A stretch of DNA of 16,422 nt. Origin: a virus (lineage: Duplodnaviria; Heunggongvirae; Uroviricota; Caudoviricetes). The stretch is from IMG/VR virus record IMGVR_UViG_2541047794_000004. One strand, 5' to 3'. The position numbers and the translations under genes were made by a program. Positions 1 through 9,300 of the stretch are shown here, piece by piece. How positions within the stretch are numbered: the stretch's first letter is position 1; each line of letters starts with the position of its first letter. The notes under the pieces are model-generated. The model was given only the letters and a program-made list of their open reading frames with translations. It ran no database searches and was not told where the DNA came from.

Positions 1-171
1 TCAATAAATCCCATCATTGCGATCAACCTCATCCTTAACCATTGATGCGAGCAGTTCTTCCAGTTTCTGCGCTGACAGCTTTACCTGGTGATCTTCAGCA
101 TCTTCCCGGGCTATTGTGGTTCGCGCAGTGGCTGATTTTGCTGACATCACCACAGGGGGCAGACGGACCAT
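1..171 (-). CDS. Hypothetical small protein (about 47-56 aa); start ambiguous
   Basis: Open frame ends with TGA (revcomp of tca at 1-3). Minus-strand ATG at 169-171 is preceded by GGAGG about 10 nt upstream; an alternative ATG lies at 145-147. The first ~45 codons of the 93-aa track ORF cross the tfa-like terminator hairpin and are probably non-coding. No family recognised. Confidence 0.3.
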   Translation of the reverse strand: MVRLPPVVMSAKSATARTTIAREDAEDHQVKLSAQKLEELLASMVKDEVDRNDGIY

Positions 172-235
172 TGAACCATGGCCTCCGGAACAAATAAGGG
201 CAAAAATAACAACCACTATCGAAAGCTCACAAACT

Positions 236-451
236 AACCGCAGCACGTTCCTGCATACGACGTGTCTGCGGCATAATCCCAATGATTACTCCCTGACAGG
301 GTTTGCAGGCCACTCAATATCAGGTGCAGTTGATGTATCAACACGATTCAACAATACCCGATATTTATTCCATGCCTCCAGCAACGATCTTTCTTCCTCC
401 GTTGCGATTTCCAGATCTACAGCATCCTGCAGTGGCGCAATATACTCACTG
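236..451. repeat. Direct repeat copy A: tfa 3' coding end plus 3' UTR hairpin, roughly 90% identical to 1286..1500
   Basis: By-eye alignment of 236-451 with 1286-1500 shows long identical runs (e.g. ggcataatcccaatgattactccctgacaggg, ctcaatatcaggtgcagttgatgtatcaacac). Includes an imperfect hairpin at 238-271. Confidence 0.85.
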
Positions 452-555
452 AATTCCTGGATGTAGAACTGTGTGGTGACGGTCTTCCAGCCATTCGGCT
501 CCTGCTGTATCGAAGCATACCAGGCTATTTCAATATCGCTATGCTGCGGCAGCAT
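286..555 (-). CDS. Short Tfa-like protein (89 aa): C-terminal ~50 aa match the tail fiber assembly protein C-terminus, with a novel 35-aa N-terminus; possible remnant or short paralog
   Basis: C-terminus [52 protein letters not shown] is near-identical to the C-terminus of the 194-aa Tfa at 1335..1919. ATG at 553-555 with AGGGG 4 nt upstream on the minus strand. Confidence 0.55.
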
Positions 556-582
556 TTAACCCCTTGTAATTCATCGCCATAA

Positions 583-611
583 TTGATTTAATTCACAAAT
601 AAAACTATAAC
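583..611 (+). promoter_or_regulatory. Candidate sigma70 promoter for the methyltransferase gene
   Basis: TTGATT at 583-588, 17-nt spacer, TATAAC at 606-611, in AT-rich DNA directly upstream of the ORF. Sequence-only prediction. Confidence 0.35.
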
Positions 612-623
612 ATGGTGAAATCA

Positions 624-1280
624 ATGAAAAAAAACACAGATGATGGGGCTAAAATTTACACACCACTTACCCTAAAGCTTTATGACTGGTGGGTTTTGGG
701 AGTATCAAATCGGCTTGCATGGGGATGTCCTACAAAGGAACACCTTCTTCCACACTTTCTGGAACATGTAGGTAACAACCATCTGGATATTGGTGTTGGA
801 ACTGGGTTTTACCTTACTCACGTACCTGAGAGTAGTCTGATATCTTTAATGGATTTGAACGAAGCTAGCCTGAACGCGGCATCTACAAGGGCTGGGGAAT
901 CAAAAATTAAACATAAAATTAGCCATGATGTTTTTGAACCTTATCCCGCGGCGTTACATGGTCAATTTGATTCCATTTCCATGTTTTACCTTCTTCACTG
1001 CCTGCCTGGAAATATATCTACAAAAAGCTGTGTAATACGCAATGCGGCGCAGGCCTTAACTGACGATGGAACTCTATACGGAGCCACAATTCTTGGCGAT
1101 GGAGTTGTGCACAATAGCTTCGGTCAAAAACTGATGCGCATTTACAATCAGAAAGGCATCTTTTCAAACACAAAAGATTCCGAAGAAGGCTTAACACATA
1201 TACTCTCAGAGCATTTCGAGAATGTTAAAACCAAGGTTCAAGGTACTGTAGTAATGTTTTCCGCTTCAGGGAAAAAATAG
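624..1280 (+). CDS. Class I SAM-dependent methyltransferase (orphan, about 218 aa; alternative start ATG 612)
   Basis: Glycine-rich motif I LDIGVGTG, acidic motif II-like LMDLNEA, and DSISMFYLLHCLP / LTDDGTLYGATI segments typical of a Rossmann-fold MTase. GGTGA 5 nt upstream of ATG 624. Low GC relative to the tail genes. No DPPY/NPPY or PCQ DNA-MTase motifs seen. TAG stop at 1278-1280. Confidence 0.7.
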   Translation: MKKNTDDGAKIYTPLTLKLYDWWVLGVSNRLAWGCPTKEHLLPHFLEHVGNNHLDIGVGTGFYLTHVPESSLISLMDLNEASLNAASTRAGESKIKHKISHDVFEPYPAALHGQFDSISMFYLLHCLPGNISTKSCVIRNAAQALTDDGTLYGATILGDGVVHNSFGQKLMRIYNQKGIFSNTKDSEEGLTHILSEHFENVKTKVQGTVVMFSASGKK

Positions 1281-1285
1281 CATCC

Positions 1286-1500
1286 AACCGCAGCACGTTC
1301 TTGCTTAAGACGTGCTGCGGCATAATCCCAATGATTACTCCCTGACAGGGTTCGTAGGCCACTCAATATCAGGTGCAGTTGATGTATCAACACGGTTCAG
1401 CAACACCCGATACTTTTTCCAGGCTTCCAGCAATGAGGTTTCTTCCTCCGTTGCAATTTCCAGATCTGCAGCATCCTGAAGCGGCGCAATATGCTCACTG
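1286..1500. repeat. Direct repeat copy B: 3' end of tfa plus its 3' UTR hairpin
   Basis: See copy A; same orientation, roughly 90% identity over about 215 bp. Confidence 0.85.
1288..1320 (-). terminator. Hairpin downstream of tfa (perfect 11-bp stem ccgcagcacgt / acgtgctgcgg); possible bidirectional terminator between convergent tfa and the methyltransferase
   Basis: Perfect inverted repeat at 1288-1298 and 1310-1320. On the minus strand a T-run follows about 10 nt downstream (revcomp of gaaaaaatag), further than in a canonical intrinsic terminator, so function is uncertain. Confidence 0.45.
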
Positions 1501-1919
1501 GCTACCTGCATCAGGTTGTTTTTTGTTTCTTCCGCCTCCCGGATCCGGAACAGTTTTTCTGCTTCCGTATCCTTCACCCAGGCTGTGCCGTTCCACTTCT
1601 GAAACTCCCCTTCCGGCGATAACCAGGTAACATTTTCCGGTAACGGACCGAGTTCAGAAATAAATAACTCGTCCCCTGACGCTACGTCATAAACCGTTTT
1701 CCCCCGATGGTCTTCAACGAGATGCCACGATGCCTCATCACTGTTGAAAACAGCCACAAAGCCAGCAGGAATATCTGGTGGTGCAATATCGGTACTGTTT
1801 GCTGGCAGACCTGTATGAGGCGGAATATATGCGTCACCTTCACCAATAAATTCATTAGTTCCGGCCAGCAGATTATAAATTTTTATGGTCCGTGCTTGTT
1901 CACTCATTCTGAATGCCAT
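1335..1919 (-). CDS. tfa: Tail fiber assembly protein Tfa (194 aa)
   Basis: Translation [39 protein letters not shown]... matches my recollection of lambda Tfa (orf-194) along its length and has the same 194-aa size. ATG overlaps the stf stop (TAATG). Confidence 0.93.
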
Positions 1920-4900
1920 TATGCAAGCCTCACAATATAGTTAAATGCGATGTTTTTGACGGTGTTTTCCGCGTTACCCGCAGCGTTAACGGTGATGGTG
2001 TGTCCATGTGAACCAATCGCAACGGAGTGCGTATGCGCACCAATACCTACAGTATGTGCATGTGCGCCAGAACTTGCTGCAGTACCAGACAGCGAGTGGG
2101 TATGAGCACCTGCTGACTGTGTCTGAATACGTTGATAATACGATCTATAGGAAGAAGTCTCCGGGCTTACTTGATACTGTGAATTCTGGACATAAGTGAA
2201 CCCACCGCCATCATAAAATGCTAACGCAGAACCGCCGCCTCCTGGCCAACGAATACCATTACCATGAGTATGAACACCGGCAGACCCCGTAGAGCCACTC
2301 AGACTGTGCGTATGCGCCCCGGTGTTATTCGTGGATTTAGTGCCGTAATCAAACGACGATGTGGTTTTCGTCCCCAAATCCGTACTGGATGCGCTGGCGC
2401 TGTGGGTGTGCGATTTTATGCCGTCCTGTTCCTGAGACAATACGGCCCGGCCACTGGCGGGTTTGCCCTTAATCGTCCAGCCACGCATATCAGGGATCAC
2501 GCCTGACGGATAAGCCGCTGCAAGTTTCGGGTAGGCAGATTTGTTAAAAGTCTGCCCCTGCATCAGGGCATAACCAGACGGAACGGTATCTGATGGCCAC
2601 GGGATTGGTGCGCCAACTGGGTAGCTTTCTGGTGGAAGATTTTTCGAGGTATAAACTTCTGCCCAGTCTTCCTCAAAACCATAACCGTCTCTTGAAGAAC
2701 GGTAGAACAGACCACGATTTCTGTAATGCGCCTTCATCTGCAGGGTCCGGCAACTTCCGACTCCGGTATAGAAGTTAACCAGAATATAGCTGTCGCCAGA
2801 GCGGGCGACATTGTAAGCGCCTGATTCGGCATTCCAGGGAACGGCTCCATTCGAATCCGCATAAGCCCCCGTCGAACGTCGGGCAAATGCACCAATATTT
2901 TCCGGCGTGAGGTTAATATCCGCCGAGCCATCAAACTTAACACCGTTAATTTTTGGGGCTGCCGCAAGTTTCGTCGCGGTATCGGCGTTCCCCTTCAGTG
3001 CCCCGGTGATCCCATCAGTAACAGACAACGGACCTGAAATAGTCCCTCCAGTCGTTGGCAGCGCTCCAATATCTGATGGTGTAGGTTTCTGATGTGAGCT
3101 ATACATCGTATAAACAACACCACCGGTAACGCTGGAAGGCTTACTCGCTGAATATGTTGGCGAGGTATAAATAGAAACTGACGCATTTGCAGTACAATCC
3201 CAATGGATATTTACACTCGTCGCATAATTGCCAATCTCAACGTAAATATCATATGTATCGCCGGATGTGTTGATCCAGGCGAAATTCGTTAATCCGACGG
3301 CTGTACGCTTCCACAAAGCCCCGGTAATTCCTTTGGGGTTTCCATTGCCTGCTCGTAGAACCAGTTCTGAAATGCCTGCCTGATGTGGGGAACCGACGTT
3401 GTAACCAGCGCCACCAATCAATGCGATGTAAACGATGGAACTCGCTTGTGGCATGGTAACCGTTGCCAGTTTGAACCACCCAGCCCCGCCAGAGAAAGAG
3501 ATCGTTACTGAATTTAAAGTGCCAATATCTTTCGGTGTTAATGTTATATCCGCAGTCAGTGCTTTCCCGTTAACTTTTCGGTTAGATGGTACCCTGCCAT
3601 TCGCATTGTCATTCGCTGCTTTAACTGCCTTCGGTGTCGCGGCAAGCGTTTCAGATGTGATGTTGGTCGCACTGCTGAGCTGTACTATCCCCTTTTTCGT
3701 CGTACTTGCATCCTCAAGCGCCACGGCGGATGCAATATCCTCTGCCCGTTTTGCCGCTGTCTCGGCGCGCGTTGCCGCGGATTCCGCCGTACTTTTGCTC
3801 TGTGCTGCCGCCGTCGCACTGCCAGCTGCCTCTGTCGCCTTCGCGGATGCTGTCGTGGCGCTGCCCTTCGCTGCTGACGCCTGTCTGGTCGCCTCATCTT
3901 TTGAAGCAGACGCCGATGATGCCGATGACGCCGCCGAACTGGCGGACGATGCGGCAGCCGTTTTTGAGGATTCTGCGCTGGTCTCCGACGCTTTCGCGTT
4001 CGTCTCCGATGTCTTCGCTGCGGAAGCAGACCTCGCTGCTGCACTGGCCTGTTCAGTGGCTTCGCCAGCCTTCGTTGTGGCTGTTGAAGCGGACGATGCG
4101 GCGCTTTCTGCCGATTTTCCGGCGGCGCTAGCACTGGCTGAGGCCTGCCCGGCACTTGTTGACGCTGCACTGGCAGACGACGCAGCCGCTGTTTTTGAGC
4201 CTGCTGCTGCGGAGGCACTCTGTGCTGCTGCCGTTTCAGAGGACTTAGCGTTTGTCTCAGACGTCTTTGCCGCCTTCGCGGAATTTCCTGCCGCCGTTGC
4301 CGAGGAAGCGGCATTACTGGCGCTCGAGGCTGCGCTCGTTTCTGATAATTTTGCCGCCTCTTTTGAAGCCGACGCATCTCTGGCTGAGGTGGCTGCTTCT
4401 GACGCTTTCGTGGTCGCGGTGGATGCAGAAGTGGCAGCTGATTGTTGTGACGCTGCCGCATTCGTTTCTGACGTTTTCGCCGCACCGGCACTGGTGGCCG
4501 CCGCGCTTTTTGAGGACTCTGCAGCGGCAGCACTTTTTGATGCTTCAGTGGCCTTTGCTGATGCCGTTCCTGCGCTGGAAGACGCAGACTGAGCCGACGA
4601 AGCGGCCTGTCCGGCTGACGTGCTGGCTGCTCGTGCTGAGCCTGCAGCATCAGTCGCACGGGTTGCCGCCTCACGGGCTGATGTGCTGGCATCGCTGGCT
4701 GATTTCTTCGCGGCTGCCGTGTTCTGTGCCACCGCGGACGCGTTACGCGCCACCTCTTCCACCATCAGTTCAAAGCGGCGCAGTGCCTCAGGACGGGCAT
4801 CATCCTCCGTCATGGCACCGAGAAAATCATTCAGCGTACCGGGTCGGGAATCTTCATACACGGTGATGGTCCCGGCATGTGACGGCGGGAATCCTTCCAC

Positions 4901-5089
4901 CAACAGAATAACGCTGTACTGACCGTACTCAACGTCCATGCTGTAACGCCCGGCTTCATCCGGATTTTCTGAGGCCAGCGTGTTCACCACCACCGTGGTG
5001 CTGTTACGTTTTGCTTTCAGCTGGATTGTGCAGTTCTGTACCGGTTTTCCTGTGCCGTCTTTCAGTACACCTGAAATCTTTACTGCCAT
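1919..5089 (-). CDS. stf: Side tail fiber protein Stf, full length (about 1056 aa from ATG 5087-5089; track ORF starts at upstream GTG 5095)
   Basis: N-terminus [26 protein letters not shown]... and C-terminus ...[49 protein letters not shown] match lambda Stf as I recall it. Long Ala/Ser/Thr-rich repeat tract. [10 protein letters not shown] and [11 protein letters not shown] tail-fiber repeat motifs in the central part. Confidence 0.9.
3731..4744. repeat. Low-complexity Ala/Ser/Thr-rich imperfect tandem repeat tract inside stf
   Basis: Stf residues about 118-455 consist of recurring AKTSETNA(K/A)..., SASTATTKA(S/G)EA..., SAASSAS units. The same composition bias produces long spurious ORFs in the other frames (3435..4592 +, 3685..4692 -). 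Confidence 0.8.
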
Positions 5090-5100
5090 ATTCACCCCAC

Positions 5101-5153: not shown

Positions 5154-5753
5154 TCAGAATTTATAACCGACACCAACGATGAAACTGTTGGTACGCCAGT
5201 CACCGCTGCCGGAGCCTTCATAAGCGACATCAACGGCCACGGATTCTGTCGGGTTAAACTGCACGCCAGCCCCCCACGCCAGAGACGTGTTGCTGTGGCG
5301 ACCGTCATCACTTCCGGTCAGCACATCGTGCGTTTTCCCCGTATTGTCGGTCACCTGCAGATAATCCCCGGAGAAAGTCGACACACGGCTGTAAGCCACA
5401 CCCGCCATCGCATACGCGCTGAACCATTCATTCACGCGCACAGACGGCCCCGCCATCACGCTGAACCAGCGGTTACGCACGGAATCTTCATGCCAGCGGG
5501 TATCGCTGTAATGCGTTTTTTGCTCATCTTCAGCGTTGGCATAACTGAATGACGTAATCAGCCCCAGCGTGTCCGTAAACTCATAACGGTATTTCACGTT
5601 AATCCCGTTCAGATTATCGCTGCCGGGAGCGTTCGTACGGGCATGAAGATACCCTGCGCTCAGTGTGGCCTGCTGCTCAGACGCCCATGCAGGCGCACCG
5701 GATACGGCCAGACAGATGGCTGCGGACAAAATGGCTGCACAAACTTTACGCAT
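5154..5753 (-). CDS. lom: Lom/Ail-family outer membrane beta-barrel protein (199 aa)
   Basis: N-terminal signal peptide [24 protein letters not shown]. Motifs [17 protein letters not shown] and the C-terminus [23 protein letters not shown] match lambda Lom as I recall it. Sits between J and stf as in lambda. GAGAGG RBS. Confidence 0.9.
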
Positions 5754-5820: not shown

Positions 5821-8800
5821 TCAGCTAATCGTGATGCCTGCAGTGGCTTTCTTCATCACCACAACCAGCAAATCGCTGATACTTGCTGTGGGATACCAGT
5901 TATTTACCAGCCATGCTGACACCGAAAACTCCAGTGTCATGTGACCGTGACCGGCAGGCATATCAATAACGCCACTGTAAATCAGCGTATTATCCAGCGC
6001 GGTACGGTTATAAATTTCAGCACCGTTTTTCCGCACTATCAGACGGCATGAGGAGTAAATATCAGTATGCTCTTTCTCATGTTTAGCGCCGCTGAATGCC
6101 ACCGCCGGAATAACAATCTGCCGGTCAAACGGCTGATCGTCATAAACCCTGACGGTAATGGTTCCTGATGGCCACCGCTCCGGTGCACGGGAGTCCCGGG
6201 GGAAAGCTTTGCCCACTGTTTTAACGAGATCGCCTTCAATCTGGTTCGCGGACAATTTTCCCAGAACCCGACAGTTCTCGTTAATCGTGACGTTGTTGAG
6301 CGTCCCGGAGTTCGCATTCACGTTACCGCTGATATCGGCATTTTTCGCCGTCAGCCGCCCGTCCGGTGTCAGGGAAAATGCCGGAGGATTACCGCCGCTG
6401 GTAATGGTGGGGGCCGTCAGGCGTTTCAGGAACACTTCATTCATGAATATCTGATCGCCCTGACCAACAAACATCGGCTTTGTGTTGCCATTCGCAGGAT
6501 TAATCATCGCAATCCTGTCTGCTGCCAGCAGCACCTGACTCTGCATGCCGTCAGGGGTGTTCTCAATACCGGCACCGATACCCGCAATATAAAGGCGTCC
6601 GTCCTGCATCTGCTGCAGCTTCACTGCCCACATGCTGTTCAGGTTATTATTTGTATCAACCTGAACCTTCTGTATCTGCTGGATCGCTGCACTCTGGTCT
6701 TCCAGTTTCTTATTGACGGTCTGTGTTATTTCATTGCTGACATCCGTTATGGACGTCCTGATTTCAGTCAGGTCAGGCGCAAGCTGACCGTTATCAATCT
6801 GCGTCCACAGCTCCTGAGCCAGATGGGTTTTCCCTATCTCGCCTTTGAAAAAATCCAGATAGCCTGATGCATCATCACTCGGCTGACCGACAGCCTCCAC
6901 GAATGCCGATTTGCCAACGGTGTTCACACTGCGAACGTAAAAATAATAATCATGGCCCGGTTTGATATTGATACTGGCGGCTATCCAGTACAGTGCCGTA
7001 CCAAGATAACGCGCGCTGGTTTCAACCTGCCTGATATCCGCAATCCGTTTTTCCGAGAACCAGAACTCAAACTGTACCGTCGGATCATAAACCGCAAGAT
7101 GCGGCGTGGCGGTTATCTGAAAATAGCCCGGCGTCAGCTCAATCCGCGACGGTGCTGCCGGTGCGGCAATCCGGAATGATACCGACGCCGGATCACCCTG
7201 CTGCCCCCAGGCATTTACCGCCCTGACTGTCAGCCTGTAGTTCCCCAGCGCCAGCTGCCTGAAGCGGTATGTGGTTTCCGTCGTCCGGGCCGTGCTGACC
7301 AGCCGCTCACTGCCGTCATCCGCTGTTACGGTCAGACGGAGCAGGAAGCTCACGCCCTTCACCACCTTCGGCGTGTCCCAGCGGGCCAGCACCTGATATT
7401 CCCCGCTGTCTGCGGTGACTTCGGCAGTCAGGTGCTGCACCGCTGGCGGCGTGACACCATTCACCGTGCCGCTCTGGTCGCCGTCAAAGTGCGCCCCGTT
7501 ATCCACGATGGCTTCTTTTTCCGGTACATGCTGCACGGCGGTGATGGCATACGTGCCGTCGTCGTTCTCACGGATACTCACGCAGCGGAACAGGCGCTGG
7601 CGCAGCGTCGGCAGCTTCAGCCCCCACACGCTGTATTCAGCAACGCCGTCAGGAACACGGCTCACTTTCACCTTCACGCCGTCGGTGACGGACTGGACCT
7701 CCACGCTGACCGGATTCCCCTGTCCGTCAACCAGGCTTATCAGCGTGGTGCCGGAGGATGGCAGCGTGATTTCACGGTCGAGCGTCAGTGTCCGCGTCTG
7801 GCTGTTCACCGCCAGCACGCGCCCGCCGATGCTGATACCCGCATAGTCATCATCACAGATTTCAATGACATCGCCCGGTACATGGCGAAGCCCTTCTGCA
7901 CCCACGCTGAAGTCCACGGTCTGCGTTTCCAGCAGCTCCGTTTTAATCAGCCACAGCCCGGCGCGGTGTGCCTGCCCCCGGCTGGTACAGCCAAAGGCAT
8001 CCATCTTCGTGACGTTACGACCGTAACGGAGAATGGCCTGCGTATCTTCAACAAGCTCTGTCGCCGTCTCCCAGCCGTTATTCGGGTCAATCCAGTTCAC
8101 CTCAACGGCATTATGGCGGTCCTTCAGGGCGCTGAAGCTGTAGCGGAACGGCGCGCCATCATCCGGCATCACCACATTACTGCGGTTATAGGTCCACACC
8201 TTATCCGACGGTCGGTCCTGCACGAACGTCAGCGTCTGCCCGTTCCATACCGGCATACAGCGCATCGCCGAGCAGAAATCACTGAGAACATCCCACGCCT
8301 TACGCTGTGTGGTCAGGTAGGCATTACAGGTGATGCGCGGCTCCGTGCCACCAAAGCCATCCGGCACTGACTGATCGCAATACTGGCCGATGACATACAG
8401 CGCCCATTTGTCCACATCCGCCGCACCAAGACGTTTCCCCATGCCGTAGCGCGGGTGGGTCAGCATATCCCACAGACACCAGGCCATGTTGTTGCTGTAT
8501 GCCGGTTTAAACGTCCCGTCCCAGATACCGTTGTATTGCCGCGTCTGCGGGTTATAGTTCGACGGCACCTGCAGAATGCGCCCGCGAAGATGATAATTAC
8601 GGCTCACCTGCTGGCTGCCGAACTGCTCCGAATCCACCTGCACGCCGACCAGTGCCGTGTTCGGGTAGCCCTGTTTCACATCGATGATTTCGGTGTATGA
8701 CGACCAGAGCGTTTTGTTCTGCAGCTGGTCTGTGGTGCTGTCCGGCGTCATCCTGCGCATCCGTATATTGAACGGGCGCGGCGGCAGGTTACCCACCACC

Positions 8801-9300
8801 ACCGAGGCCAGATACTGCGAGGTGGTTTTGCCCTTAATGGTGATGTCTTTTTCCGTCACCCAGCCACCATTACGTTGTATCTGAACCAGCAGGCGAACTT
8901 CCGACGGATTCCTGTCCCCCTTTGAGGTGGTTTCCACCAGTGCCTGCACACCGAAGGTAAAACGCAGTCGGTCAATGTTTGCCGACGTGATGGTCCGGGT
9001 GATCGGCGTGTCGTATTTCACTTCCGTACCCAGTACCGTCTCGGAACCTGATGATTCAAATCCCTCCGGCGGTGTCTGTTCCTGCTCACCTGCCCGGAAC
9101 ACCACCGTGACACCAGAGATGTTAGTATTCCCCTCACTGTCCAGCACCGGTGTACTGTTCAGCAGCACGCTTTTTAATCCATCCACCGGACCTTCAACCG
9201 GCCCTTCGCTGATGGCATCGATCACACTCAGCAGCTGCGTGGACTTCAGGTTGTCCCTCGCTTCGCGCGGGGTATGCCCCTTACTGCTTCCTTTACCCAT
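5821..9300 (-). CDS. J: Tail tip / host specificity protein J (1159 aa), central fibre and receptor-binding protein
   Basis: N-terminus [34 protein letters not shown]... and most of the length match lambda gpJ as I recall it; the last ~150 aa look divergent. GGAG 8 nt upstream of the ATG. Confidence 0.95.

Follow-up and report, generated by a model that had tools for sequence, protein, structure and literature searches.

Direct repeats of the tfa 3' end around ybcY in a lambdoid prophage: a probable illegitimate joint followed by homologous shuffling

The window analysed here, a whole stretch of 16,422 nucleotides, belongs to a lambdoid prophage inserted at ompW, of which it forms the right arm, and near the left end of the window a methyltransferase gene lies between two copies of the 3' end of tfa, which raises the question of how this repeat arose and whether the gene between its copies is stably held. 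The locus is the intact counterpart of tfaD–ybcY–tfaX in the DLP12 prophage of E. coli K-12, which is already known and annotated; positions 309-1773 align with the MG1655 locus (581.66-583.12 kb) as a single BLAST segment with 96.9% identity over 1465 nt. An earlier sequence-only reading of this DNA had left the K-12 locus unrecognised, and it was BLAST together with the annotation that identified it. A literature search returned no description of the repeat, nor of a tfa/methyltransferase moron, and ybcY and tfaX appeared only in lists and tables. The features of the locus are as follows.

1-282, minus strand: DUF4376 pseudogene with an internal stop, a tail-fibre-related remnant in the left flank (PGAP annotation of the 100%-identical AR_0017 locus)
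236-451, minus strand: left repeat copy, the final ~52 codons of a tfa allele followed by the hairpin (236-271), with weak similarity to 462
286-555, minus strand: chimeric ORF of 89 aa, of which K-12 TfaX is a shortened form, with residues 1-37 of the phrog_3893 family and residues ~38-89 from the Tfa C-terminal domain
452-455, no strand: putative illegitimate (non-homologous) junction between tfa-derived and phrog_3893-derived DNA, with microhomology CTCA..CCTG, from a three-way DNA alignment (window tfaX, Citrobacter module, window tfa)
556-611, no strand: AT-rich divergent intergenic region (GC 0.33), conserved in Citrobacter, with a sigma-70 promoter TTGATT (583-588)-17-TATAAC (606-611)
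612-1280, plus strand: YbcY-family class I SAM-dependent methyltransferase (Pfam Methyltransf_12/23/25/11; phrog_2132)
1286-1500, minus strand: right repeat copy, the final ~52 codons of the intact tfa followed by the hairpin (1286-1320), with weak similarity to 1511
1335-1919, minus strand: intact lambda-type tfa, 194 aa (Caudo_TAP, phrog_105)
1919-5095, minus strand: stf side tail fibre gene, 1058 aa (phage_tail_N, Collar and Phage_fiber domains; PGAP annotation)

Gene order and orientation are those of K-12 tfaD (b0561), ybcY (b0562, a pseudogene) and tfaX (b0563), the ybcY promoter hexamers are common to both, and the K-12 locus also has a direct tfa-3' repeat (143 bp at 87.5%). K-12 TfaX (61 aa), listed by RefSeq as a protein, corresponds to the first 61 residues of the 89-aa ORF, whereas in the window TfaX runs to its full length, keeps the whole Tfa C-terminus and has a hairpin of its own. 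The window further differs from K-12 in that ybcY is intact, in that tfa is intact and joined to a complete stf, and in the downstream neighbour, which is the DUF4376 remnant at ompW instead of appY–ompT. Residues 34-93 of this remnant match phrog_7703 and phrog_1141 (tail fiber protein), and it adjoins the prophage/ompW junction, which lies just beyond the window. The 194-aa Tfa is a full member of the Caudo_TAP chaperones (PF02413), to which lambda Tfa and Mu TfaMu belong, matching positions 1-130 of the 131-position profile with 151.5 bits (cut-off 22.1); it matches phrog_105 (E 9e-101), and its DNA is ~92% identical to lambda orf-194. The repeated part encodes the conserved C-terminal helical domain of these chaperones.

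Direct repeats of about 215 bp and about 90% identity had been reported by the sequence-only reading, and both their extent and their coordinates were reproduced by local alignment and BLAST. The segments 236-451 and 1286-1500 lie in the same orientation and are identical at 195 of 215 positions (90.7%) by local alignment, with a single 1-nt indel separating a block of 26/29 identities (236-264/1286-1314) from one of 169/186 (266-451/1315-1500); BLAST inside the window gives 90.3% over 216 columns, and the similarity is significant (E 1e-78). A fainter similarity extends past this core to 462/1511, identity is unbroken over 39 bp (307-345) and 38 bp (266-303) at the longest, and BLAST detected no further copy elsewhere in the 16.4-kb window, the best other match being a 13-nt chance seed. 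That each copy consists of the last ~52 codons of a lambda-type tfa and its terminator hairpin, as had also been proposed, is borne out by the Caudo_TAP matches and by both UTRs, which fold as stem-loops on the minus strand (right copy, -28.5 kcal/mol, z -4.9; left copy, -24.1 kcal/mol, z -2.4). On the plus strand the shared hairpin has -24.2 kcal/mol (z -4.4) and is not followed by a U-tract.

The repeated unit could also be viewed as a small-RNA gene in two copies and not as coding sequence, given that cmscan matches the Rfam model IS009 (RF02111) at 1378-1576 with 225.2 bits (gathering score 117) and at 329-532 with 112.5 bits. However, both matches lie on the coding strand within tfa and tfaX, the one in the left copy falls just under the gathering score, the model consists mostly of unpaired sequence, and the substitutions between the copies are biased to synonymous changes. 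We regard the small-RNA explanation as scarcely credible.

Over the 52 codons the two copies show dS 0.40 and dN/dS 0.12, values that support reading the left copy as what is left, after truncation, of another tfa allele that differs from the right one. If part of the resident tfa, its 3' end, had been tandemly duplicated in situ and the methyltransferase inserted afterwards between the copies, this would explain why the copies are direct, close, in register and provided with similar hairpins, and a partial tfa duplication was one of the origins offered by the sequence-only reading. In its simple in-situ form this does not fit a 10% divergence that is biased to synonymous changes, since the copies are 9.3% apart with the dS and dN/dS of two functional alleles. 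Moreover, the left copy is itself a mosaic, in which 236-306 matches resident single-copy alleles and 346-462 has tfaX-specific variants, and the phrog_3893 fragment upstream of it is contiguous with the methyltransferase module, as in Citrobacter, so that one joint accounts for both the “insertion” and the truncation. An in-situ duplication is thus very improbable.

The position of such a joint is suggested by the 89-aa ORF, whose C-terminus is formed by the left repeat copy. The ORF fails full-length Caudo_TAP membership, as only residues 31-86 match, and only positions 75-130 of the profile; it is a fragment fused to foreign sequence, and unlike the Caudo_TAP chaperones it is without the variable N-terminal fibre-binding domain. 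It matches phrog_2341 over its whole length and phrog_3893 over residues 3-37. The different N-terminus and the plausible ribosome-binding site that had been attributed to this ORF were both recovered, the former as the phrog_3893 family and the latter as AAGGGG, read from the sequence 4 nt upstream of the ATG. The N-terminus is foreign to Tfa: among the best 120 of 800 homologues no longer Tfa protein contains it, and the longer homologues in this set differ only by alternative C-terminal read-through. Residues 1-37 are, on the other hand, 76% identical to a full-length 80-aa Citrobacter protein, and in Citrobacter freundii this 80-aa phrog_3893 gene is divergent from a 90%-identical methyltransferase across the same intergenic region, an arrangement that would be the pre-fusion state. 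Full-length phrog_3893 genes also occur in Klebsiella phage Kp4882-3 and HK225. By these alignments TfaX is a chimera, in which the start of a phrog_3893 gene is fused to the tail of tfa.

The account we favour, with a probability of about 0.8, is that an illegitimate joint made the duplication and that homologous recombination in the tfa ends then shuffled the module. An accessory module of 0.83 kb (~455-1292), consisting of the ybcY-family methyltransferase, its sigma-70 promoter and the first ~35 codons of the divergent phrog_3893 gene, would have come to lie downstream of stf–tfa. Its right end would abut the terminator hairpin of the intact tfa, and comparison with Citrobacter places the module/UTR junction at ~1286-1292. 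Illegitimate recombination would have fused its left end, across a few microhomologous bases, to a second tfa allele at codon ~141, leaving the last ~52 codons and the hairpin of that allele as a remnant and creating TfaX as an in-frame fusion. The direct repeat would thus be a consequence of the illegitimate joint, the founding event being reconstructed from the anatomy of the locus. No phage was found in which two complete tfa genes stand in tandem, and no exact donor for the left allele. The sequence-only reading had placed homologous recombination between the tfa genes of two phages at the origin; this fails because an exchange of that kind cannot produce a duplication; the duplication appears instead to have arisen at the non-homologous joint at ~452-455.

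Because it encodes the conserved Tfa C-terminal domain, the repeated segment has a conserved DNA sequence in many phages, so that both copies may act as homology patches. Recombination of the Red/RecA type in these patches would bring the module together with new tail-fibre or downstream arms, and would occasionally remove it, as suggested by mosaic breakpoints and by presence/absence alleles. Identity over the core (~351-1320) is 98-100% in PhiR26_1, Turner, 2G7b, ev243 and DLP12, while the flanks differ. In a P2-like prophage that also has the three genes, identity is 99% for the methyltransferase, 90.6% for tfa and ~83% for the C-terminal part of tfaX. Lambda has been found to gain markers via stf/tfa homology of 88-96% identity at ~2e-6 per phage in a Red-beta dependent manner (De Paepe et al. 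2014, PMC3945230). That system resembles the present one in that it also involves tfa at similar divergence, with a longest perfect block of 49 bp compared with 39 bp here. It differs in that exchange between phage and prophage was measured, whereas here the patches are read from sequence and both lie in one genome; with two direct patches in one genome, intramolecular deletion is also allowed.

The gene carried by the module has been characterised as follows. The methyltransferase probably starts at ATG 624 (218 aa); the phrog_2132 alignment begins at residue 5, and most homologues have 218 aa. It matches Methyltransf_12 with 37.5 bits (cut-off 30), and its AF2 model (pLDDT 90) has a Foldseek probability of 1.0 to many class I methyltransferases. 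The nearest solved structures in PDB sequence and fold searches (13-21% identity) are PE N-methyltransferase, JHAMT, phosphoethanolamine methyltransferase and natural-product methyltransferases, and these fold matches to small-molecule and lipid enzymes suggest that YbcY may be a methyltransferase of the small-molecule type. NCBIfam gave sub-threshold matches only (CpaM, RquA, PmtA) and PADLOC nothing meaningful. A DNA methyltransferase, whether of a restriction-modification system or orphan, was rejected, as no such family was found in Pfam, NCBIfam or PADLOC and the folds are not of the DNA type. The methyltransferase segment is present in 3836 of 5426 complete E. coli genomes (~70%), and Enterobacter has a chromosomal, non-prophage homologue. 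Remoter homologues were seen in Klebsiella and Salmonella, in contexts that are non-phage or fragmentary and throw no light on where the gene came from.

The promoter hexamers are those of the constitutive RpoD promoter of K-12 ybcY determined by Genomic SELEX, which also reported a promoter on the tfaX side and an H-NS site (PMC3946193). Our promoter/terminator consensus scan gave counts no higher than in shuffles and missed the SELEX-reported promoter site. GC is 0.33-0.46 across 526-1275, compared with 0.47-0.53 in the repeat and tfa. The low GC, the own promoter and the presence or absence of the gene among related prophages all agree with the suggestion of the sequence-only reading that the methyltransferase is cargo. 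Morons of lambdoid phages are extra, independently transcribed genes between conserved genes, as seen in comparisons of HK97 and HK022. The methyltransferase is moron-like in having its own promoter, lower GC, presence/absence in collinear prophages and a place in the late-operon/b-region arm. It is unlike morons in standing between the copies of a 215-bp direct repeat that comes from the adjacent structural gene, in bringing along a fragment of a former neighbour (phrog_3893), and, on the plus strand, in showing no intrinsic terminator that could clearly be called its own. A transposon or insertion sequence was also considered and rejected: there is no transposase or integrase between the repeats, the ends are without inverted repeats, and the repeats are 215 bp long and 9% diverged.

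A possible deletion between the direct copies, and with it a potentially unstable locus, had been suggested. Natural alleles from which exactly the 1050-bp interval is missing do occur at this chromosomal site: 19 genomes share the ompW site and the flanks but not the interval, and their junctions fall inside the repeats. The instability, however, was overstated, as the cassette is retained next to this flank in about 361 complete genomes and most of the 19 alleles are diverse single-copy alleles, not fresh deletions. All 11 typed alleles without the methyltransferase are left-type at 236-265 (10 of them through 306) and right-type at the tfaX-specific sites from 346 on. Flanks were compared with those of AR_0017 and LP-26-E1-261. 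Between L027, which has the methyltransferase, and L005, which lacks it, one flank shows 1 mismatch over 3.2 kb and the other 6 over 3.5 kb, and the single copy of L005 is a patchwork of the two copies of L027. In EFF60 the hairpin is exactly left-type and the coding sequence exactly right-type, and the two alleles of EFF60 and NMBU-W13E19 fit predicted deletion products; a two-crossover insertion explains both as well. Lambda itself also combines a left-type hairpin with right-type coding sequence, and single-copy alleles of this pattern may for this reason be ancestral. The backbone of EFF60 is common to other, methyltransferase-bearing prophages. EFF60 was rejected as a recent derivative of the prophage in the window, as its stf is only 87-97% identical. 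Overall, the locus is largely stable.

Whether TfaX is a by-product or a gene in its own right bears on how the repeat is viewed. TfaX could be a selected functional gene, in which the Tfa C-terminal (trimerisation) domain on a new N-terminus modulates tail-fibre assembly or hinders other phages, and the repeat would then be a selected paralogue and not a scar. The Tfa C-terminal domain has been reported to mediate trimerisation (PMC9608196). TfaX is intact at 89 aa in many genomes, shows 83% amino-acid identity in the P2-like prophage and dN/dS of 0.19-0.23 between variants, and has a Shine-Dalgarno sequence, its own PHROG family (phrog_2341), the SELEX promoter on the tfaX side in K-12 (PMC3946193) and, in K-12, a RefSeq listing as a protein. 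However, natural variants are truncated at many different sites (82 aa, 61 aa in K-12, and 101-aa forms without the last 15 Tfa residues, from a breakpoint at 331), the phrog_3893-derived part is under relaxed constraint (dN/dS 0.54, 7 changes), PGAP labels TfaX a partial pseudogene, and the low dN/dS of the C-terminal part may be inherited via recombination with functional tfa alleles. We find a selected function unlikely, and TfaX is most likely a non-functional by-product. It could further be speculated that the tfa-3' patches are portable homology arms, that the ybcY module is a recombination-mobilised cassette hopping among unrelated tailed phages (lambdoid, P2-like) wherever the Tfa C-terminal domain is encoded, and that TfaX, as a trimerisation domain without the fibre-binding domain, is kept for hindering or tuning the tail-fibre assembly of resident or competing phages, which we consider quite unlikely.

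The locus is an ordinary scar of phage mosaic evolution, with a cargo gene between a complete tfa and the leftover 3' end of a second. The joint followed by shuffling, which we prefer, would explain K-12 TfaX as a phrog_3893–tfa fusion and the presence of tfa sequence on both sides of ybcY, and in this respect mainly tidies the record; the pre-fusion pair, a full-length phrog_3893 gene beside the methyltransferase, would survive in Citrobacter. As Rfam IS009 coincides with conserved tfa coding sequence, its matches need care. The locus may serve as a clean natural case of two-step phage mosaicism, in which an illegitimate joint makes a novelty and homologous recombination in conserved patches spreads it. 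The main biological question is the role and the substrate of YbcY, a prophage-borne enzyme, probably of the small-molecule type, in ~70% of complete E. coli genomes, with a constitutive promoter and an H-NS site.

The stretch comes from a lambdoid prophage and makes up its right, or tail-fibre, arm, with the genes arranged as follows.

5821-9300, minus strand: J
5154-5753, minus strand: lom
1919-5095, minus strand: stf
1335-1919, minus strand: tfa, 194 aa
612-1280, plus strand: class I SAM methyltransferase, between tfa and the prophage end
286-555, minus strand: 89-aa ORF, between tfa and the prophage end
1-282, minus strand: DUF4376 / tail-fibre-like pseudogene, between tfa and the prophage end

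Positions 1-2000 are 100% identical to E. coli AR_0017, in which the prophage ends at a truncated ompW adjoining trp–yciEFG. The DUF4376 pseudogene has an internal stop and matches phrog_1141 'tail fiber protein', so the prophage end is a pile of remains left behind as one tail-fibre module after another was replaced. Between this remnant and ompW, some strains (comparison loci L005, L017 and L027) have ash/Rha genes inserted. PGAP calls a 45-aa 'hypothetical protein', WP_001309429.1, at 1225-1362 (minus); it runs across the 3' end of the methyltransferase, the terminator hairpin and the stop of tfa and is most likely spurious.

Of 5426 complete E. coli genomes, 3836 carry the methyltransferase segment (556-1285) at 98-100% identity, among them K-12, with up to four copies per genome. 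The MG1655 counterpart is ybcY (b0562, a pseudogene) in the cryptic prophage DLP12, between tfaD (b0561) and tfaX (b0563); window 309-1773 aligns with this stretch in a single piece (96.9%), the 61-aa TfaX of K-12 equals residues 1-61 of the 89-aa ORF, and the direct repeat is also found there (143 bp, 87.5%). The same pair is annotated 'YbcY' and 'Tfa' in the inducible lambdoid phages PhiR26_1, PhiR68_2, Turner, 2G7b and ev243. Behind the tfaX–ybcY module these active phages (L002, L008-L011) have an alpha/beta-hydrolase gene or appY and then ompT, which is the order of the K-12 DLP12 remnant (tfaX–appY–ompT), and this shared order suggests that K-12 ompT and appY belong to the cargo of this phage family.

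Local alignment recovered exactly the repeat intervals of the sequence-only reading, as 236-264/1286-1314 and, past a 1-nt indel, 266-451/1315-1500, with 195/215 identities and a BLAST E of 1e-78. The similarity extends weakly to 462/1511, and BLAST gave no further copies of the segment elsewhere in the window. Both copies comprise the tfa 3' UTR hairpin, with a minus-strand fold of -28.5 kcal/mol (z -4.9) in the right copy and -24.1 (z -2.4) in the left, and the last ~52 codons. Synonymous differences over the shared codons number 11.5 and non-synonymous ones 5.5 (dS 0.40, dN/dS 0.12). Both copies therefore diverged as working tfa alleles and neither is a recent duplicate, in agreement with the earlier proposal that two tfa alleles were involved. 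The repeat codes for Tfa's conserved C-terminal helical domain, and its DNA is for that reason common to many phages; the variable N-terminal domain is the one that binds the fibre, according to a passage citing TfaMu work (PMC9608196). The Rfam model RF02111 'IS009', with a gathering score of 117, matches both repeat copies on the coding strand, inside tfa (1378-1576, minus) above that score with 225 bits and inside tfaX (329-532, minus) just below it with 112.5 bits; what it describes seems to be conserved coding sequence for the tfa C-terminus.

The 89-aa ORF matches the tail fibre assembly protein profile Caudo_TAP (PF02413, 131 positions) with residues 31-86, which cover only the last 56 profile positions, and residues 3-37 match another family, phrog_3893 (79 aa). 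Its N-terminal sequence lies inside a longer Tfa in none of the 120 best homologues, among which length variants differ C-terminally only. Full-length phrog_3893 genes are present in Klebsiella phage Kp4882-3 and in HK225 (gp28). In Citrobacter freundii (L034) and a related contig (L036) an 80-aa phrog_3893 gene lies divergent beside a 90%-identical methyltransferase, the spacer being the same ~59-nt promoter region, and ORF residues 1-37 are 76% identical to the 80-aa protein. This arrangement is the pre-fusion state and the decisive case for the origin of TfaX. The ORF following the full-length phrog_3893 gene in Citrobacter (L034 2307-2606) and Kp4882-3 (L025 2679-3071) bears a by-eye resemblance to the UmuD/LexA type (S24 peptidase), which, if true, could hint at the role of phrog_3893.

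In a three-way DNA alignment of the window tfaX, the Citrobacter module and the window tfa, the left copy tracks tfa to ~451 and the Citrobacter module from ~455, with the switch falling within a few shared bases (CTCA..CCTG). At the right end, similarity to Citrobacter stops at ~1286-1292, the start of the tfa 3' UTR. By these boundaries ~455-1292 is a single contiguous foreign module comprising the phrog_3893 5' part, the promoter region and ybcY. On the right it is joined to the UTR of the intact tfa and on the left to the middle of a second tfa; the left joint is most probably illegitimate and generated the direct repeat and, because it is in frame, also TfaX. The methyltransferase had rightly been regarded as cargo. 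The founding event had been ascribed to homologous recombination; instead, an illegitimate joint with a phrog_3893 gene most probably made the duplication.

Genomic SELEX in K-12 reported a constitutive RpoD promoter for ybcY (TTGATT-17-TATAAC), a second promoter on the tfaX side and H-NS binding in the spacer (PMC3946193). The ybcY hexamers correspond to window 583-588 and 606-611. ATG 612, the annotated start, is not conserved in Citrobacter. Since the -10 hexamer immediately abuts this codon, the PHROG 2132 alignment to YbcY begins at residue 5 and homologues are mostly 218 aa long, the true start is probably ATG 624, with a very short leader. The YbcY model has a class I methyltransferase fold (AF2 pLDDT 90), and its nearest solved structures, at 13-21% identity, are bacterial phosphatidylethanolamine N-methyltransferase and juvenile-hormone acid methyltransferase, besides phosphoethanolamine and natural-product methyltransferases; family searches gave no match among DNA methyltransferase and defence families. 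Enterobacterales widely carry homologues at 56-68% identity, and in Enterobacter hormaechei (L028-L031, gene 3001-3657) a 218-aa homologue (65%) has a conserved non-prophage chromosomal setting (ABC transporter, DUF4156, alpha/beta hydrolase, MerR regulator), which suggests an enterobacterial chromosome as the source of the captured phage gene.

Three lines of evidence show homologous recombination within the repeats. PhiR26_1, Turner, 2G7b, ev243 and DLP12 share the core (~351-1320) at 98-100% identity, far above its flanks; on the left the similarity breaks at 309/331, and on the right either at 1320, at ~1420-1455 or nowhere. An unrelated P2-like prophage near smpB carries the same triad tfa–methyltransferase–tfaX, with 99% identity in the methyltransferase, only 90.6% in tfa and ~83% in the tfa-derived part of tfaX, the identity steps falling within both repeats. 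Thirdly, a probe of left flank plus tfa-specific sequence detected methyltransferase-less alleles at the same ompW site in 19 genomes, all spanning exactly 751 bp, with the probe parts 227 bp apart (1277 bp with the cassette); the cassette with the same flank occurs in ~361 more genomes (380 minus 19). Typed at informative sites, 11 such alleles all have a left-type hairpin (236-265), are left-type through 306 in 10 cases (EFF60 is right-type already at 304 and 306) and are all right-type at 346, 351, 364, 376, 430, 444 and 452+. The window's left copy is thus itself mosaic, changing somewhere between 306 and 346 from a resident 3' end to tfaX-specific sequence.

Deletion between the repeats had been predicted, and two alleles look like its products. 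In EFF60 the hairpin is exactly left-type and the coding sequence exactly right-type, the switch lying at 266-303, and the encoded Tfa is identical to that of the window. Between L005 (NMBU-W13E19) and the methyltransferase-bearing L027 (LP-26-E1-261) the left flank shows 1 mismatch over 3.2 kb and the right flank 6 over 3.5 kb, and the single copy of L005 is a patchwork of the L027 copies (left 236-345, right 346-366, left 367-373, right from 376) with one private change, the pattern that would be expected of heteroduplex repair between diverged repeats. A two-crossover insertion of the module also explains EFF60 and L005, and single-copy lambda also combines a left-type hairpin with right-type coding sequence. 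The other methyltransferase-less alleles look like old single-copy lineages, because they are diverse and carry private changes. As deletion and insertion fit the same data, recombination within the repeats is shown but may have run in either direction. Its rate is probably low, to judge from the longest perfect identity blocks (38-39 bp), from ~2e-6 recombinants per phage in the comparable lambda × Rac/Qin tfa homology (PMC3945230) and from the ~19 to 1 ratio of cassette-bearing to empty forms at the ompW site, so that calling the locus potentially unstable was an overstatement. Escherichia phage Ayreon (L024 2286-2600) shows a further stage of decay: behind a 32-aa Tfa C-terminal remnant with its hairpin come the final ~40 nt of the methyltransferase, which run straight into the tfaX/phrog_3893 start (32-aa ORF). 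Here the methyltransferase was therefore lost through an internal deletion (window ~581-1246) and not through tfa-repeat recombination.

Overall, the mechanism first proposed is retained in its two tfa alleles, its cargo gene and the possible deletion between repeats, but not in its founding event or in the degree of instability. To it are added the chimeric TfaX, the Citrobacter pre-fusion state, the mosaic left copy and natural presence/absence alleles with repeat-internal junctions. The locus, for which a K-12 annotation already exists, is very common in E. coli, and its repeat is no more than an ordinary product of mosaic evolution in phages.
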